From an uncultured Acidobacteriaceae bacterium (GTDB lineage: Bacteria > Acidobacteriota > Terriglobia > Terriglobales > Acidobacteriaceae), in assembly GCA_964247625.1 (NCBI GenBank), contig CAXTVA010000003.1, forward strand, positions 228,849-292,848: DNA of 64,000 nucleotides, given 5' to 3'. Made by a program: the position numbers and the translations under genes. The number at the start of each line of letters is the position of its first letter. The first letter of the stretch is position 1. A model generated the notes under the pieces. That model was not told the origin of the DNA and searched no databases. It saw only the letters and a program-made list of their open reading frames with translations. Positions 10,800 to 55,428 of this stretch are shown in pieces.

Positions 10800-12581
10800 T
10801 TACAGTACCGGCGAGTCGTTGTGGAGCATGTCTTTGCGGATGACCTTGATGGGGACGGGGCCTTCGCGCATGAAGGCGTCGTGGAACTGCTGAAGGTTGA
10901 AGCTGGCTCCCTGCTTGGCCTGAACGTCGGCGCGAAGCTGGAGGATTTGGAGTTTGCCGAGGGTGTAGTAGAGGTAGGTCGCGTCGGAGGTGCCGCGCTT
11001 GGTCTCGATGAGGCCGATGGCACGCGACTGAAAGCCTTCGCGAACGAAGAAGTCGACGGCCTGGTCGGTGGTCCACTTGCCGCCGGGCTCGCCCTCGCCG
11101 GTGTGGAGCTTGATGGAGTTGACGAAGCGGGCATCGCGCAAGAGAGCATCCTGGAGCTGGCCGAGGCGGATGAGTTTGGCCTCTCGCGAGCCGGCAGTGA
11201 CGCCGGGTGGAAGATAGCCCTCGTCCAGCATCATCTGCTCGCAGTAGTGCGCCCAGCCCTCGATGTTGGTCGCGGAGCCGGTGAGCTTGCGAATCTTCGA
11301 GGGGAACTGGTCCTGCCAGAGGAACTGCACGTAGTGGCCGGGGTAGGCCTCGTGCACGGCGGTTGACGTGATGGTGCCGACGTTAAAGGCGGCCATGTGC
11401 TCGGCGACGTGCTCCGGCGTCCAGTTTTTCTCAGGCAAGGTGACGTTGAAGTAGGCCTTGGTGGAGTGGGTCTCAAAGGCGCCGGGTGCGTCCATGGAGG
11501 CCTGGGTAGTCGCGCGCTCGAAGGGCGGGGTCTCCTCGAGAGTGGGCTCGACCTTGGAGGGAATGGTGATGATCTGTTTGCTGTTGATGAAGGCGATCAG
11601 GCTTGAAAACTGGGCTTGAAACGTTGCAAGGAGAGCATCAGGCGAGGGATGAATGGTTGCGAGCTGGGCGAGGACCTCCTGAGGCGTCTTCGACGGATCG
11701 ATCTCCTTGGCGATGCGGGCGAACTCGGTCTGATTCCTGTGCAGGTCGGTGTAGGCGATCTCGAGCAGGCGCGGGAGCGGGAGGTCGACCATCTCGTCGT
11801 AGGCGAGCTTCTTACGGAAGGTGTCGCTGCCGAGGCGGTAGTCGCCGTTTGAACGCGGAAGCAGGTCGGTGCGCATCCACGTGCCGTAGCTCTTGAGGGC
11901 CTCGATGACGGCCGCGTTGGACTGGGCGAAGTCAGCTTTGGTCTTCGCATCGGTCGCGTCGGCGAAGGCGGAGGGGACGTCGTTCTGGAAGAAGCTGACG
12001 AGGCCGCCGATCTGCTCGAGCGCGATCTCGGTGAAGATGTGTGGCGGATTCTTGAGGTTCTGGCGGGCGGCGGAGAAGGCGGCGGGGATCTGCCGCTCGC
12101 GTTCGATGGCGGCGCGAAGGCGCACGTCGGTGGGCGCGAAGGGACGCTCCATGAGGACGAAGATGGAGCCGGTCACGCCAGAGGAGTAGAGATCGGGATT
12201 CTTCTCCCAGTTGCGGATGGTATCGAGCGAGAGGAGCTGGGAGCGGATGCTGTTGAGGAGGATCTCGCGGTCGGCGGCGACGGGGGCATCGAGCGCACTG
12301 GGGTCGACGGCAGCGAGCTTCTGCTCGTAGCTGCGCAGGGCCGCGATGTTGCGCTGAACGCCGGGAGCGGAGTAGTCCTCGAGCTGCTTATCGTACTGGT
12401 GGAAGCCGATCGATGTGGCTTGGCTGGGATTGAAGTAGAAGAAGACGTCAGTGAAGTACTGGTCGGCAAGAGTCTGGAAGGTCTGGGCGGCGCCGTCGGC
12501 GGCGGTGTGCTGGGCGAGGGCGGTGGGCATCATGGCGAAGGTGAGGAGCGCGGCGGTCAACGTGGCGAGGGGTGTCTTCAT
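10800..12581 (-). CDS. DUF885 family secreted protein (putative metallopeptidase-like)
   Basis: The start was re-picked at ATG 12581 (MKTPLATLTAALLTFAMMPTALAQ signal peptide). The conserved HEAYPGHYVQ motif of DUF885 is present. Confidence 0.8.
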   Translation of the reverse strand: MKTPLATLTAALLTFAMMPTALAQHTAADGAAQTFQTLADQYFTDVFFYFNPSQATSIGFHQYDKQLEDYSAPGVQRNIAALRSYEQKLAAVDPSALDAPVAADREILLNSIRSQLLSLDTIRNWEKNPDLYSSGVTGSIFVLMERPFAPTDVRLRAAIERERQIPAAFSAARQNLKNPPHIFTEIALEQIGGLVSFFQNDVPSAFADATDAKTKADFAQSNAAVIEALKSYGTWMRTDLLPRSNGDYRLGSDTFRKKLAYDEMVDLPLPRLLEIAYTDLHRNQTEFARIAKEIDPSKTPQEVLAQLATIHPSPDALLATFQAQFSSLIAFINSKQIITIPSKVEPTLEETPPFERATTQASMDAPGAFETHSTKAYFNVTLPEKNWTPEHVAEHMAAFNVGTITSTAVHEAYPGHYVQFLWQDQFPSKIRKLTGSATNIEGWAHYCEQMMLDEGYLPPGVTAGSREAKLIRLGQLQDALLRDARFVNSIKLHTGEGEPGGKWTTDQAVDFFVREGFQSRAIGLIETKRGTSDATYLYYTLGKLQILQLRADVQAKQGASFNLQQFHDAFMREGPVPIKVIRKDMLHNDSPVL

Positions 12582-16617: not shown

Positions 16618-16798
16618 GGCTCAGTGGCTAGGATAGAGCAGTTCTGCTGAGGAGATGAAGCGGAGGGCGGGGGGCGTGCTGTTTCGACGGAAGAACGGCG
16701 CAGACGATCCTGGCTCGTGGTGTCTCCTGCGGAGATCGCTCGAGCTGCCTGGCGGGTGTCGCTGAGCGATGGCTCGACGTTTGCTGCTGCAAACGGAA

Positions 16799-16827
16799 GC
16801 GGGCCGCGAGAGAGTCTCGCGGCCCGC
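16799..16827 (-). terminator. intrinsic terminator downstream of the receptor gene
   Basis: A 13-bp perfect stem GCGGGCCGCGAGA/TCTCGCGGCCCGC lies 20 nt after the stop at 16847. On the minus strand it is followed by TTCCGTTTG. Confidence 0.6.
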
Positions 16828-16846
16828 TGGTGTGGTGCGGTGAGGA

Positions 16847-19800: not shown

Positions 19801-20371
19801 TGTGGGAGAAGGTACTGCCGGTGACGCCGGGGGCGAGAAACTGGAGGGTATCGATCTGACGGCCACGACCGCCTCCGATGGTCACGGGAAGCGACGTGAC
19901 GACCTCAGGCTCAATGGTGGTCCCGAGCTCGGGCTGGGTCGTGTTCAAGGCGATGAGGTCCGCGTTGACCTCAATGGTCTGATTGGACTCGCCATTCGAG
20001 AGTTTGACATCGATCGTGGATTGGAGGGTGACCTCAATATTGACGTCGTTCTTCACGGTCTTGCTGAAGCCGGGCGCGGTGACAGTGATGGTGTAGCGGC
20101 CGGGTAGCAGGCCAGTCGCCGTGTACTCCCCGGCAGAGCCGGAGACGACGTTGGTAGTGATCTGGGTCGCGACGTTGGTGACGGCGACCGTTGCGCCGGG
20201 CACGATAGCGCCGGAGTTGTCGGTGATGGTCCCGGTGACACCGCTGGACGCCTGGGCGAGGCAGGCGACGGAGCTGGTCGAAAGGATCGCGACTGCTGAG
20301 AGCGGGAGCAGGGTTCGCCGGACGCGCGACAGGGCGAGGACCCAGGTGTGGATGTGGTGCATGCGTGCCAT
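16847..20371 (-). CDS. TonB-dependent receptor with N-terminal carboxypeptidase-regulatory-like domain
   Basis: ATG at 20371 is preceded by GGAGG. It has a signal peptide, a CarboxypepD_reg-like segment (GTITDNSGAIVPGATVAVTN...PGRYTITVTAPGF) and a plug-like segment. The long beta-barrel ends in ...GRLTF (C-terminal Phe). Confidence 0.85.
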   Translation of the reverse strand: MARMHHIHTWVLALSRVRRTLLPLSAVAILSTSSVACLAQASSGVTGTITDNSGAIVPGATVAVTNVATQITTNVVSGSAGEYTATGLLPGRYTITVTAPGFSKTVKNDVNIEVTLQSTIDVKLSNGESNQTIEVNADLIALNTTQPELGTTIEPEVVTSLPVTIGGGRGRQIDTLQFLAPGVTGSTFSHNINGGVNFEQEVLYNGIPAPQSETAGNTGNFNPPFELVNQFRLERSTFSAKYGLAQGAVTYQTASGTNQYHGDAFYINRNEFFDARGYFNTTTPSDRENNYGFTIAGPASIPHFYNGKDRTFFLFALDFAKTNNTQTSLGTVPTAQQKTGDFSDFVDGNGNLIPIFDPTTGQQFQYQGRLNVIDPARFSAASRAILPLIPDPDRPGLNTNKNYLPTPLPTVNHVFGFTIDHNLNSKQSLHFAEWRNSYSTIVFNGSGPGGGDIFPVSSPLQSTKYQPDLGTVFLLNYVNAVTPKLVFTAGVAWIGEINNEFSQSPKSNIFPTAPSPIAQGLPPAISFDGQNATTGFGVNTNGETQSINRKLGLSAVNNWLWTKGRNTFNFGGEARRSYQDDNECQECTGGFSFSQRTTADPNNIGTTGNSFASFLLGQVDSAQRIFANELSLRNLLIAPYIQDDIKLTPKLTVNLGLRWDLMLPFTEKKNQIVFLNQTALNPLAGNLPGVANQFSNASGGVNRADIHFKNFGPRIGFAYAVNSRTVIQAGYNVAYLNGGSYEFGTSKVATSYGNLLQGSFTANSTGGVTPGYGSWDTQPLPAPAAATISPALGIGTTIRAFDPVGSGRPPYLQQWNVNVQHQLPWNTFLQVAYIGNRALHLDGQLNPISQPNPSILQYGALLSQPINSPQAIAAGFTSPYPNFVNDLGGSATVAHALSPFPQYSNVYNNFDLTGTAAYNGLQASLEKRFSNGLSFLTSYTLSRTLANVDSAFATFATLPENKYNQKAEYTVSGADELNNAKVSGTYELPIGPGKSFVNNKGITGQIVGGIQLGFILDYETGNPFGISENGNPLGCAGCFNRPNEVPGVSRSSTNYKNFNFATGQSNRTVFSTNAFVSTSSSFTLGNAKRNYPELRGPGVYEESLKASKKFALGEHASFVLEMNYFNLLNRVRFNSPNANIDNSSNFGFIPSGQQSLNGSNSGARNGQLSGRLTF

Positions 20372-53166: not shown

Positions 53167-53242
53167 TGGAGCCGACGAACGGACTTGAACCGTTGACCTG
53201 CTGATTACGAATCAGCTGCTCTACCAACTGAGCTACGTCGGC
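53167..53242 (-). tRNA. tRNA-Thr, anticodon CGU, with encoded CCA
   Basis: Manual cloverleaf: GCCGACG/TA/GCTC-AGTTGGTA-GAGC/A/GCTGA-TTCGTAA-TCAGC/AGGTC/AACGG-TTCAAGT-CCGTT/CGTCGGC/T/CCA. All stems are perfect Watson-Crick. Confidence 0.95.
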
Positions 53243-53254
53243 GAAACCTCTCGT

Positions 53255-53283
53255 ATTCTAGCGACTCGCAGCTTATCGCGCAA
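53255..53283 (-). promoter_or_regulatory. candidate promoter of tRNA-Thr
   Basis: The minus strand reads TTGCGC (53283-53278), a 17-nt spacer, then TAGAAT (53260-53255). The -10 element ends 12 nt upstream of the tRNA 5' end. Confidence 0.45.
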
Positions 53284-53335: not shown

Positions 53336-53491
53336 TCAGAGATCGCGAGCAGAGACCCGCAGTCCGTCGACCGACGATGGCTCGTGGTGTTCACCTTTTT
53401 GCTCGCGCTCCCGCCGCTCGAACGAGCTCGCCAGAAGACAGGGTCCAAGGAACATGACGATGAAGATGACGACTGTGAGTGCGTGGTGCAT
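53336..53491 (-). CDS. hypothetical 51-aa single-TM protein
   Basis: The ATG at 53491 is preceded by GGAGGG with a 7-nt spacer. The product is MHHALTVVIFIVMFLGPCLLASSFERREREQKGEHHEP..., one TM helix followed by a charged tail. I know of no homology. Confidence 0.4.
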   Translation of the reverse strand: MHHALTVVIFIVMFLGPCLLASSFERREREQKGEHHEPSSVDGLRVSARDL

Positions 53492-53651
53492 TGGATAACC
53501 CTCCGCGGCGGAGAGCGTTCTGCGCCTCCTCCGTACCCGGGTCATCGGCACGCACGGTGAAGTCTGCTTCGTTGTCTCGATTCAGGACATCTGACGAATG
53601 ATTTCGCCCCACCATCGATCCATCGGTAGGAGTCTCCGCGTGCGAGGTTCA

Positions 53652-53698
53652 CACCAAAAGAAAGAGAAGGCCGCCTGGCAACGAGTGGCGGCCTTCTC
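53652..53698 (-). terminator. canonical intrinsic terminator
   Basis: It has a perfect 12-bp stem GAGAAGGCCGCC / GGCGGCCTTCTC and an 11-nt loop. On the minus strand it is followed immediately by TTTCTTTTGGTGT. Confidence 0.8.
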
Positions 53699-53744
53699 GC
53701 TAGGGAGAATAGTTCCAACGGAGGCAAAGCCATCAGAACTTTCT
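53652..53744 (-). ncRNA. candidate ~90-nt small RNA (promoter-to-terminator unit)
   Basis: It is bounded by the promoter at 53751-53779 and the terminator at 53652-53698. The body contains an unpaired GCCUCCG inside an AGUUC/GAACU stem-loop. No credible ORF is present. Confidence 0.5.
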
Positions 53745-53750
53745 GGCGAA

Positions 53751-53779
53751 ATAGTAAGTTTGGCGCAAAGGGGTGTCAA
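53751..53779 (-). promoter_or_regulatory. near-consensus sigma70-type promoter
   Basis: The minus strand reads TTGACA (53779-53774), a 17-nt spacer, then TACTAT (53756-53751). The predicted TSS is near A53744. Confidence 0.5.
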
Positions 53780-53998
53780 GCGGGAAAGGAATCACGCCTA
53801 AGATCTTCATATGAGGGGACTTATCTTAAGTTAGGGATGCTCGCCTGCGTGTCACGAATTCGCCTTTTCTTCGTAATCAATAGACTCTACTCTGCGTTGA
53901 ATGTGCAGCTTACGGGTTCGGATGCACCGAAAGCAGGGCGCTCGCTGTGTGAGCCTACGCCCGAGAGATGACTTCGATCCTACTGTCGTAACGACACC

Positions 53999-55255
53999 TC
54001 AGAGGGAGGGATCGTTCGTTCCCGACGACTCCGTCCCGCCCGCCCGCTGTCCAGCGAGGTTCAGCCGCAGGAACTCCGGCTCGGTGGCCGCAGGCTTCCC
54101 CATCATGACCCGGATCGACGCTCGCCCGAAGCCGAGAAAGGCTCCCAGCAGTATTGCGGCCAGCCCCGCTACGCCGCTGAAGGTGGCGATACTGACCAGC
54201 AGGCTCGCTGTCTTGCGCACCTCGACGTGGAACTCCGGCGGCACCGGCTTGTCGAGCGTGACGTCCAGGCGTAGATGGATGTTCTCCACCAGCTCCTGCG
54301 CCTCAGCCGCCGAGAAGCTCCCAGTCGCCAGCAGAACCAGCGGGCCCTCTCGCCGCAGCTTTACGGTCTGCGCGCCTGCCGCATGGATTCCCGTCGCCAG
54401 CTGCATCACTGGCCCATCCGGCGGCAGCTTTACCTCTGTCGTGCTGGCCTGCGTGCCCGCTTTGCTGTTCAGGTAGGCCTCGATCGCGCGCCCACGCTCG
54501 GCTGCGATCTGCGGCGTCGGAAACAGCAGCAGGGTCAGAACGCCCGAGCCACTTCGCTCCGCATAGTTCGCTGTGATCGCCTCCGCTGCCTTCTCGAAGC
54601 CGATGAGGTCGGCCGGGAGCACCCCGTGCGTCGCCGCATACCCTGCTGGCCCGAGCGCATACCGCACGGAACCTGCCTCGAGCCCGTGCGCCGGCACCAA
54701 GGTCGGCAACAGCGCCGGCAGACCCTGCCGTCCGCCGACCTTCGGCAGCCGCTGGATGATCTCCCGCAACACCGCATCCCGCGTTCCGCGCGTTGGCAGC
54801 GTTGCCATCACCACGGAGACGCCCGACTGCAGCACCACATCGTTGCCGCTTACCGAGCCGGTCGCCGCGATCCCCGGCGGCAGCGCTCCGGCTCCCGTTT
54901 TCTGCAAGAGTGTGTACGCTGCAAGCGCGCCTGTCGCGTCGCCAAACCGATACGCCCGTATACTCGCCGGCTCACCCGGGCCGTAGCTCGCCGAGGCCCA
55001 CTGTGTCAGGCCATCTTCCTTCAACACCGCGGCGGCCTCACCCGCATCGGCAGGTACACCCGATCCCATCTGTGGCTCGCCCGTCATGTGCAGGGATCCG
55101 GCAGTCTGCGGCAGCAACGGAGTGGGCGGCTCTACCAGCGTCGTCTTGCCCTGCTGTGCCGAGGCTGCGGCCCCGCCGCCGCTTACGAGCACGATTACGA
55201 GAGAGATCGCGCGCAGACTGCGCCAAACCAGCGGTGTGGGAGGAGAAACGCCCAT
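53999..55255 (-). CDS. hypothetical exported protein with C-terminal TM anchor
   Basis: ATG at 55255 gives MGVSPPTPLVWRSLRAISLVIVLVSGGGAAASA. A C-terminal hydrophobic helix (LLVSIATFSGVAGLAAILLGAFLGF) is present. It lies 173 nt downstream of the amidase gene on the same strand. I recognise no family. Confidence 0.6.
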   Translation of the reverse strand: MGVSPPTPLVWRSLRAISLVIVLVSGGGAAASAQQGKTTLVEPPTPLLPQTAGSLHMTGEPQMGSGVPADAGEAAAVLKEDGLTQWASASYGPGEPASIRAYRFGDATGALAAYTLLQKTGAGALPPGIAATGSVSGNDVVLQSGVSVVMATLPTRGTRDAVLREIIQRLPKVGGRQGLPALLPTLVPAHGLEAGSVRYALGPAGYAATHGVLPADLIGFEKAAEAITANYAERSGSGVLTLLLFPTPQIAAERGRAIEAYLNSKAGTQASTTEVKLPPDGPVMQLATGIHAAGAQTVKLRREGPLVLLATGSFSAAEAQELVENIHLRLDVTLDKPVPPEFHVEVRKTASLLVSIATFSGVAGLAAILLGAFLGFGRASIRVMMGKPAATEPEFLRLNLAGQRAGGTESSGTNDPSL

Positions 55256-55428
55256 GATTAAGCCTACCACCGCACTGGGCCCGCTCCGCCGCGCTCGCAT
55301 CGCATCCACAAACCGCCCGTCTAACCCGACCCTTGCGAAGAGAAAACAACATCATCATCACTGGCAGTTCTGACGAGCCCGCGCCGCGAAGGTCACTTTG
55401 CATTGCGCGCCATGCACAGACACGGTCG

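Follow-up and report, generated by a model that had tools for sequence, protein, structure and literature searches.

Stand-alone small RNAs (sRNAs) that end in a terminator are a known kind of bacterial gene, and several described families offer points of comparison for the locus that we report here. RsaE/RoxS of the Bacillales (RF01820) is ~100 nt long and conserved to an unusual degree across the order, with its own regulated promoter and an intrinsic terminator, and its C-rich loop and linker motifs pair with the Shine-Dalgarno (SD) regions of many mRNAs. The 'cuckoo' sRNAs (alpha-r14: NfeR1, CcsR1-4) carry loops with CCUCC-type anti-SD motifs, repeated within one RNA. DapZ and MicL lie at the 3' end of a protein-coding unit, are transcribed from an internal promoter or one of their own, and end at a terminator held in common with the mRNA. 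The locus considered here is part of a 64,000-nt stretch (hereafter the window) of an uncultured Acidobacteriaceae bacterium, contig CAXTVA010000003.1. An earlier reading of these letters, made without database searches (the sequence-only reading), had proposed an sRNA gene on the minus strand, between a protein-coding gene and a tRNA-Thr gene.

MmgR, a 77-nt Hfq-dependent trans-acting sRNA with an anti-SD motif (PMC7143759), belongs to the MmgR/SuhB family of the alpha-proteobacteria (alpha-r8, RF00519), whose members have their own RpoD-type promoter, a 5' hairpin, a Rho-independent terminator and a strictly conserved pyrimidine-rich anti-SD stretch with the consensus ...UUUcCUCCCUAg... (PMC7143759); NfeR1 and alpha-r14 are named in the same paper. 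From Acidobacteria, two candidate non-coding RNAs have been described, Acido-1 (RF01686) and Acido-Lenti-1 (RF01687) (PMC2864571), and according to one review the phylum as a whole has just four annotated sRNAs (PMC9029176). We searched the literature for Acidobacteria sRNAs, for Hfq in this phylum and for DUF6599, and found no description of the present RNA and nothing relevant to it. The stand-alone sRNA gene of ~90 nt put forward by the sequence-only reading has a conserved promoter, a conserved RNA and a covarying terminator in relatives, and from these sequence data we conclude that the unit is very probably a genuine conserved RNA gene.

Promoter, RNA and terminator across the family

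All elements described by the sequence-only reading were found on the minus strand of the window: a TTGACA hexamer, a 17-nt spacer and TACTAT, followed by a perfect 12-bp stem with an 11-nt loop and a T-rich tail (Table 1). The gap that holds them is a trough in GC content, 0.47-0.55 vs 0.60-0.70 in the flanks. Taken by itself, the promoter match is at chance level (2 in 16 kb vs 2.1 expected). The hairpin had been called without equal in the window, and a scan of the 64 kb for perfect stems of ≥8 bp agrees: only in the sRNA terminator does a T-rich tail follow a perfect stem of ≥9 bp, the next stem with such a tail being of lesser quality and 8 bp long (59967-59944). Folding of the 93-nt RNA gives -39.2 kcal/mol (z = -4.5), a stability attained by 0 of 200 shuffles. 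The only other perfect stem of ≥12 bp in the window is a 14-bp inverted repeat, AGCGGGCCGCGAGAGAGTCTCGCGGCCCGCT, at 16798-16828, which has no T tail.

The unit is placed beyond chance by its conservation, which settles the question that the promoter match alone does not. Using the DUF6599 protein encoded upstream of the unit as the sole anchor, we retrieved 80 loci from GTDB species-representative genomes, all of them Acidobacteriaceae or Terriglobales (Edaphobacter, Granulicella, Tunturiibacter, strains KBS 89 and KBS 146), with DUF6599 proteins 42-51% identical to that of the window. Searches with blastn and nhmmer located the unit in 75 of these 80 species loci, in each case on the strand of DUF6599, at a distance of 170-700 nt behind that gene and with 83-92% nucleotide identity over ~113 nt; in two of the five loci without it, the contig stops short of the site. 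When the invariant alignment columns were turned into a search pattern, at least 120 additional copies came to light in metagenomes from soil and peat. Genome and metagenome copies alike keep the promoter and both stems and, more weakly, the U-tract, as expected for the sRNA gene that had been proposed. The same pattern had no match in viral contigs (IMG/VR), for which reason a phage origin was rejected.

Conservation follows the predicted anatomy of the gene. The alignment is divided into an invariant -35, a conserved -10, a variable discriminator and a near-invariant block, AGAAAGUUCUGAUGGCUUUGCCUCCGUUGGAACUAUUCUCCCU, which begins exactly at the predicted +1. The promoter was included in no search pattern, and among the 187 copies with upstream sequence (for the metagenome part, among the matches listed) TTGACA is present in all 187, at a spacing of 17 nt in 175 copies and 18 nt in 12, and the -10 hexamer reads TAGTAT (134), TAAGAT (28) or TACTAT (22). 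Within the RNA, nt 1-43 match the window copy at a mean identity of 98.6%, whereas the neighboring tRNA-Thr gene reaches 91%; the search pattern fixed 23 core positions in the metagenome subset, and the protein-anchored subset is equally invariant. Synteny is strict: the RNA is preceded by a DUF6599 gene in the same orientation in 75 of 75 genome loci with a copy and, among the matches listed, in 97 of ~98 metagenome loci with enough sequence. A covariance model derived from 150 homologues scores the sRNA at 95 bits as the sole copy in the window, and found no second or diverged copy there or in the loci without the RNA. A repeated or mobile element was rejected on the grounds of the single copy in the window and the strict synteny.

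We next considered the two helices, counting pairs on 150 distinct sequences with shuffle and slid controls. The terminator helix, which in relatives is a 13-bp stem with a 7-nt loop, UGUUGCC, displays compensatory double changes at 12 of its 13 pairs with 99.7% of cells paired, values that 0 of 500 shuffles and no slid control reach. The 5' helix is paired in 99.8% of cells. Ten of its pairs change on one side only, always in a wobble-compatible way (U·G to C-G, C-G to U·G, G·U to A-U or G-C), and one variant carries four substitutions in the 3' strand, all of them compatible with pairing. Because these changes are one-sided, the 5' helix is supported less rigorously than the terminator. Its extent argues against the short AGUUC/GAACU stem with a fully open CCUCC that the sequence-only reading had drawn, the one-sided substitutions in relatives all favoring the longer stem.

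The proposal of an exposed CCUCC loop was correct in part. Positions 16-23 of the RNA have an unpaired probability of ≥0.9, which leaves GCCU in the loop, whereas the probability is ~0 at C24 and C25, which pair with G15 and G14 in both the minimum free energy (MFE) structure and the ensemble, so that CCUCC is half exposed. This first loop, CUUUGCCU, is invariant in 76 of 76 protein-anchored copies. In the linker that follows, the unpaired probability is 0.3-0.9; UUCUCCC does not vary within the family, and beyond it both base substitutions and indels of 1-3 nt occur. Of 187 copies, 147 have UGUUGCC as the second loop, in the terminator, and 170 have UUGCC within that loop despite the freely covarying stem around it. 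UUGCC is thus common to both hairpin loops, a twin motif that the sequence-only reading did not mention.

Searches of Rfam 15 at gathering score, with the window, a 131-nt slice and 20 relatives, yielded only tRNAs and one unrelated cobalamin riboswitch (101 bits), which lies ~0.9 kb downstream of the sRNA in a Granulicella metagenome-assembled genome (L046, 5387-5584, minus strand). With the threshold relaxed to E ≤ 10, hits were all sub-threshold and mostly driven by the terminator (ctRNA_pGA1 at 20 bits, suhB at 15.5 bits). The first of these, a plasmid copy-number antisense RNA (RF00236), was rejected: its score is below the gathering score of 45, only the terminator part aligns, and the locus is chromosomal and syntenic with no plasmid replication context. 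Overall, the RNA is absent from Rfam 15 and, judged by its sequence, belongs to a previously undescribed family kept across the Acidobacteriaceae; the family is new, and the kind, a stand-alone bacterial sRNA ended by a terminator, is known.

Table 1 The sRNA gene and neighboring features in the window
Feature	Position	Strand	Basis
sRNA gene, predicted, ~90 nt, from predicted start A53744 to end of T-tract	53655-53744	-	
-35 hexamer TTGACA	53774-53779	-	sequence and family invariance
-10 hexamer TACTAT, after 17-nt spacer	53751-53756	-	sequence and family conservation
5' stem-loop, RNA nt 1-39: 15 pairs, bulged A35, 8-nt loop	53706-53744	-	MFE structure, identical to centroid
Loop 1 CUUUGCCU, nt 16-23: exposed part of GCCUCC and first UUGCC (53722-53726)	53722-53729	-	unpaired probability
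C-rich linker CCCUAGC, nt 40-46, 3' part of UUCUCCCU, predicted single-stranded	53699-53705	-	partly unpaired
Terminator hairpin, predicted: perfect 12-bp stem GAGAAGGCCGCC / GGCGGCCTTCTC, 11-nt loop ACUCGUUGCCA	53664-53698	-	sequence
Second UUGCC motif, in terminator loop ACUCGUUGCCA	53677-53681	-	sequence
T-tract TTTCTTTTGG, directly after terminator stem	53654-53663	-	sequence
Conserved non-coding region, DUF6599 stop codon to sRNA promoter	53780-53998	-	block conservation in 76 loci
DUF6599 gene, constant upstream neighbor of sRNA gene	53999-55309	-	Pfam PF20244, E = 7e-17
Small membrane ORF (51 aa), downstream of sRNA	53336-53491	-	family kept in 37/172 loci
tRNA-Thr promoter TTGCGC-17-TAGAAT, ~12 nt upstream of mature 5' end	53255-53283	-	arrangement conserved in relatives
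tRNA-Thr(CGU), downstream flank of sRNA region	53167-53242	-	

Candidate modes of action

To the proposal that the gene encodes a trans-acting regulatory sRNA, with the full pairing model set out here, we give about even credence. A near-consensus sigma-70-type promoter would start transcription at or near A53744, and the GC-rich hairpin with its U-rich tail would end an RNA of ~85-90 nt, which we infer to act in trans on several partners. The invariant 5' domain would offer the 8-nt loop CUUUGCCU, which runs into CCUCC, together with the single-stranded C-rich linker UCUCCCU, and both would pair with G-rich, SD-like sequences in mRNAs and thereby lower their translation or stability. The terminator hairpin may provide stability and possibly a platform for a chaperone, while the conserved DNA blocks upstream of the promoter would regulate transcription. 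Consistent with this model, the loop (nt 16-23) and the linker UCUCCCU(A) are the accessible segments of the RNA, and both are pyrimidine-rich and complementary to GGAGG-type sites. One such site is the ribosome-binding sequence to which the sequence-only reading had pointed, and we found it as GGAGGC, 3 nt before the ATG at 20371 (minus strand).

Several observations weigh against this pairing model. No conserved complementary site, whether sought as 8-mers or as 10-mers, was found in the 1.3 Mb of loci and the window, and complementary matches of ≥10 nt numbered 60, compared with ~100 expected by our own estimate. A ranking of all start sites in the window by RNAduplex was dominated by long artificial duplexes and was not used. 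The leader of a small membrane ORF that follows the sRNA in some loci pairs with it no better than shuffles do in most cases: of 18 loci for which duplex energies were obtained, only four lay ~2 sd or more below the shuffles. CCUCC, as described above, is half buried in the stem, and it is CCUCU in a few copies. The 5' helix is without any double-sided compensatory change in the 150 sequences, and in the metagenome copies among these the search pattern itself had fixed a portion of the 3' strand of this helix. The T-tract of the window copy is the best of the family, and the U-tract of relatives is mediocre, usually with 4-5 T among the 10 nt that follow the stem, a figure that becomes 7-8 of 13 with the U-rich lower 3' arm included. 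The RNA is missing from this position in the three closest DUF6599 relatives (69-71% identity) and in two species loci. Finally, the invariance of 43 nt exceeds what a short seed needs, and suggests an interface with a protein or with multiple partners at least as readily.

This last point leads to a second, clearly less probable reading, in which the RNA is a protein-binding decoy or scaffold and mRNA pairing is secondary. The two UUGCC loops would serve as sites for an RNA-binding protein, possibly dimeric, that is thereby titrated or recruited, much as CsrA is by CsrB/RsmZ or RNA polymerase by 6S RNA. What keeps this reading live is that both hairpin loops carry UUGCC: the first as part of a loop that does not vary in any protein-anchored copy, the second held within a stem whose pairs covary freely. 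The whole 5' domain of 43 nt, stem included, is moreover conserved beyond the need of a seed and beyond the level of tRNA-Thr, and no mRNA target was found in the 1.3 Mb of loci and the window. Yet two motifs are few beside those of known decoy RNAs, and UUGCC is not, to our knowledge, a recognition motif of any protein. As for the partner, none is known or encoded nearby, and DUF6599 itself models as a membrane-anchored extracytoplasmic protein with weak fold matches rather than as an RNA binder.

A more far-reaching version, which we consider doubtful, would make the RNA a family-wide, ultraconserved master riboregulator with a mode of action not described before, acting either as a UUGCC decoy or as a mimic of the anti-SD tail of 16S rRNA that globally tunes initiation. 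If this were true, the constraint above tRNA level would reflect an essential interface with multiple partners.

Neighboring genes and cis-acting alternatives

The DUF6599 stop codon lies at a median of -226 from the sRNA start, and in 167 of 169 loci no terminator-like hairpin was found between this stop codon and the sRNA promoter. Since no other terminator follows the DUF6599 gene, the sRNA hairpin probably also ends its read-through transcripts. This arrangement, along with the strict same-strand synteny in genome and metagenome loci, is what one would see if the hairpins served chiefly in cis, terminating or stabilizing the DUF6599 mRNA or setting its 3' end, with the promoter-like sequence being secondary. 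We regard such a 3' element as improbable, because the -35 is perfect in 187 of 187 copies, at a fixed spacing to a good -10 and with invariance from the predicted +1 onward, and because a plain terminator would not need an invariant upstream domain of 43 nt. In addition, the RNA stands behind a different gene in one contig, and the closest DUF6599 genes manage without it.

The contig in question, L091 (Ga0207694_10002893), is the sole one with the sRNA (~11683-11780, minus strand) not behind DUF6599. Its upstream gene encodes a 410-aa secreted protein with no DUF6599 match, and the downstream gene a protein of 1526 aa that looks, by eye, like an Lhr-type helicase. The three closest DUF6599 proteins are encoded on ENA metagenome contigs (L001, L202, L203) that keep the order alaS-amiC-DUF6599 upstream and have different genes downstream (PMT_2, SnoaL, RecX), with neither the sRNA nor tRNA-Thr within the 9-13 kb fetched. 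Because these closest relatives are without the RNA, the sRNA gene is not universal at the position behind DUF6599, or has moved in some genomes.

The DNA between the DUF6599 stop codon and the promoter contains conserved blocks of its own. Relatives share a palindrome, TGCAC-N8-GTGCA, with arms that are ~99% conserved around a variable N8, and of which the window keeps the GGTGCA arm (53923-53928) next to a degenerate 5' arm. A direct repeat with an 11-bp period, GCGAA-N6-GCGAA in the family, reads ACGAA-N6-GCGAA in the window (53859-53874), and further blocks in the ~190-nt spacer, as aligned for L002-L081, include CTAAGCGGCTGAT and GTAAC repeats. RNAalifold detected no covariation in the spacer upstream of the promoter, and the idea of a structured RNA in the last 200 nt before the promoter was rejected on this basis. 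From their conservation, the blocks are probably DNA sites for protein regulators of the sRNA promoter.

In a structural model of the DUF6599 protein (pLDDT 73.5), a helix at the N terminus is followed by an alpha/beta core that is predicted well (residues ~60-285) and by a long C-terminal helix, which precedes a conserved GKPAATEPEFLRL tail and is, in this model, probably a membrane anchor. Fold matches are weak (TM ≤ 0.3) and include TP0453, the PknH sensor domain and RseB, i.e., extracytoplasmic ligand- or lipid-binding proteins; they are a lead at most for function. The DUF6599 gene follows a gene for an AMIN-domain amidase, which suggests a role in the cell envelope.

Downstream of the sRNA, the slot between its terminator and the tRNA-Thr promoter has variable content across loci. 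A GH28 glycoside hydrolase of ~500 aa is inserted there in 39 loci (L003, L016, L042 and 36 others), other loci have a slot so nearly empty that tRNA-Thr lies 125-140 nt from the RNA core, and overall tRNA-Thr(CGU) is found anywhere from +125 to +2200 in relatives. The arrangement of the tRNA-Thr promoter (TTGCGG...TAGAAT in relatives) is conserved. A transcription-attenuating leader for the small membrane ORF and tRNA-Thr had been offered as the alternative in the sequence-only reading, and GH28 would be a further candidate for such control. The hairpin could indeed serve as a conditional terminator, many loci have their next gene in the same orientation, and the small ORF stands at a fixed distance in 37 of 172. 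We nonetheless assign this role a very small probability: with different genes downstream from locus to locus and a conserved promoter belonging to tRNA-Thr itself, a function as a cis leader is unlikely, and at the sequence level the unit is independent of the genes that follow. No riboswitch or leader family matched, and inspection of the alignment, with no dedicated analysis of alternative structures, revealed no conserved antiterminator pairing.

The small membrane ORF is itself a member of a family of ~30-51 aa with the consensus MHDFLAGLVFVAIVMAPCVxALT... and an invariant P-C in its hydrophobic helix. Where present (37 of 172 loci, among them L045, L033, L032 and L152), it comes directly after the sRNA, always on the same strand and at +230 to +400 from the sRNA start, with a conserved GCCGATA motif ~55 nt upstream of its start codon. 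It was found nowhere else in the 1.3 Mb searched and has no Pfam match. A type I toxin-antitoxin pair, in which the sRNA would be the antitoxin of this ORF, was rejected in view of the shuffle-like duplexes and of the presence of the ORF in 37 of 172 loci only.

Three mechanical ORFs cross the unit (53542-53733 and 53582-53779 on the minus strand, 53598-53801 on the plus strand), and not the single one previously named. That any of this is a gene for a small protein or leader peptide (MALPPLELFSL...), or an opposite-strand ORF, has a negligible probability, and coding on either strand was rejected: an ATG does occupy nt 12-14 and the three variable positions nt 29, 32 and 35 are third codon positions of its frame, but the wobble pairs and the bulge of the 5' helix account for these same positions, there is no SD sequence, the ATG, the only one, is ACG in 12 copies, its frame ends after 11 codons in L045 and L077 and elsewhere passes through the terminator, and indels, of 2 nt in the terminator loop and of 1-3 nt in the linker, disrupt any reading frame on either strand.

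Comparison with described regulatory RNAs

Acidobacteriaceae are among the most abundant bacteria of soil and peat, and we found no functionally characterized regulatory RNA for them in the literature. The sRNA is unusual chiefly for the degree of its conservation and for its strict linkage to one gene. Cultured carriers include Edaphobacter modestus DSM 18101 (L068), Granulicella aggregans M8UP14 (L065) and Tunturiibacter psychrotolerans X4BP1 (L042), which makes the sRNA directly testable. If its role turned out to be that of a global regulator at the post-transcriptional level, RNA-based regulation in this phylum would become accessible to study and Rfam would gain a new family. The invariant core of the sRNA also offers a precise marker of the family for metagenomes and metatranscriptomes.

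The two candidate RNAs already described from Acidobacteria, Acido-1 and Acido-Lenti-1, had been singled out for comparison in the sequence-only reading; neither matched the window or the 20 relatives, at gathering score or at E ≤ 10. The cuckoo sRNAs differ in being encoded by multi-copy or tandem genes, whereas the sRNA gene here is single and strictly syntenic, and they gave no Rfam match. With DapZ and MicL, the locus shares its fixed position behind a protein-coding gene, the lack of an intervening terminator in 167 of 169 loci and the strict synteny, and it resembles a 3'-end-associated sRNA with its own promoter, since the terminator is probably common with DUF6599. It departs from them in that the promoter lies ~190 nt after the stop codon and not inside the coding sequence, and that co-termination is here a prediction.

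RsaE/RoxS is similar in its high conservation and in the combination of a C-rich loop with a C-rich linker. It differs in its Gram-positive hosts and in its motifs (UCCC repeats vs GCCUCC, UCUCCC and UUGCC), and no Rfam match to it was obtained at E ≤ 10. The best full-length resemblance in Rfam is to suhB/MmgR. The window RNA is not a member of that family, its 15.5 bits (E = 0.34 in the 131-nt search) comparing with a gathering score of 41, and it comes from another phylum, has a much longer and invariant 5' hairpin and a second loop motif, UUGCC, and shows no PHB-related or NtrC context at its locus. At this sub-threshold level, however, it aligns over the full model, with UUCUCCCUAG against UUUcCUCCCUAg and the terminator in register. 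Both RNAs place a CUCCC stretch between the 5' hairpin and the terminator, within a UUCUCCC that is family-invariant here, and suhB/MmgR is the closest functional analogue of the Acidobacteriaceae sRNA among the systems compared.

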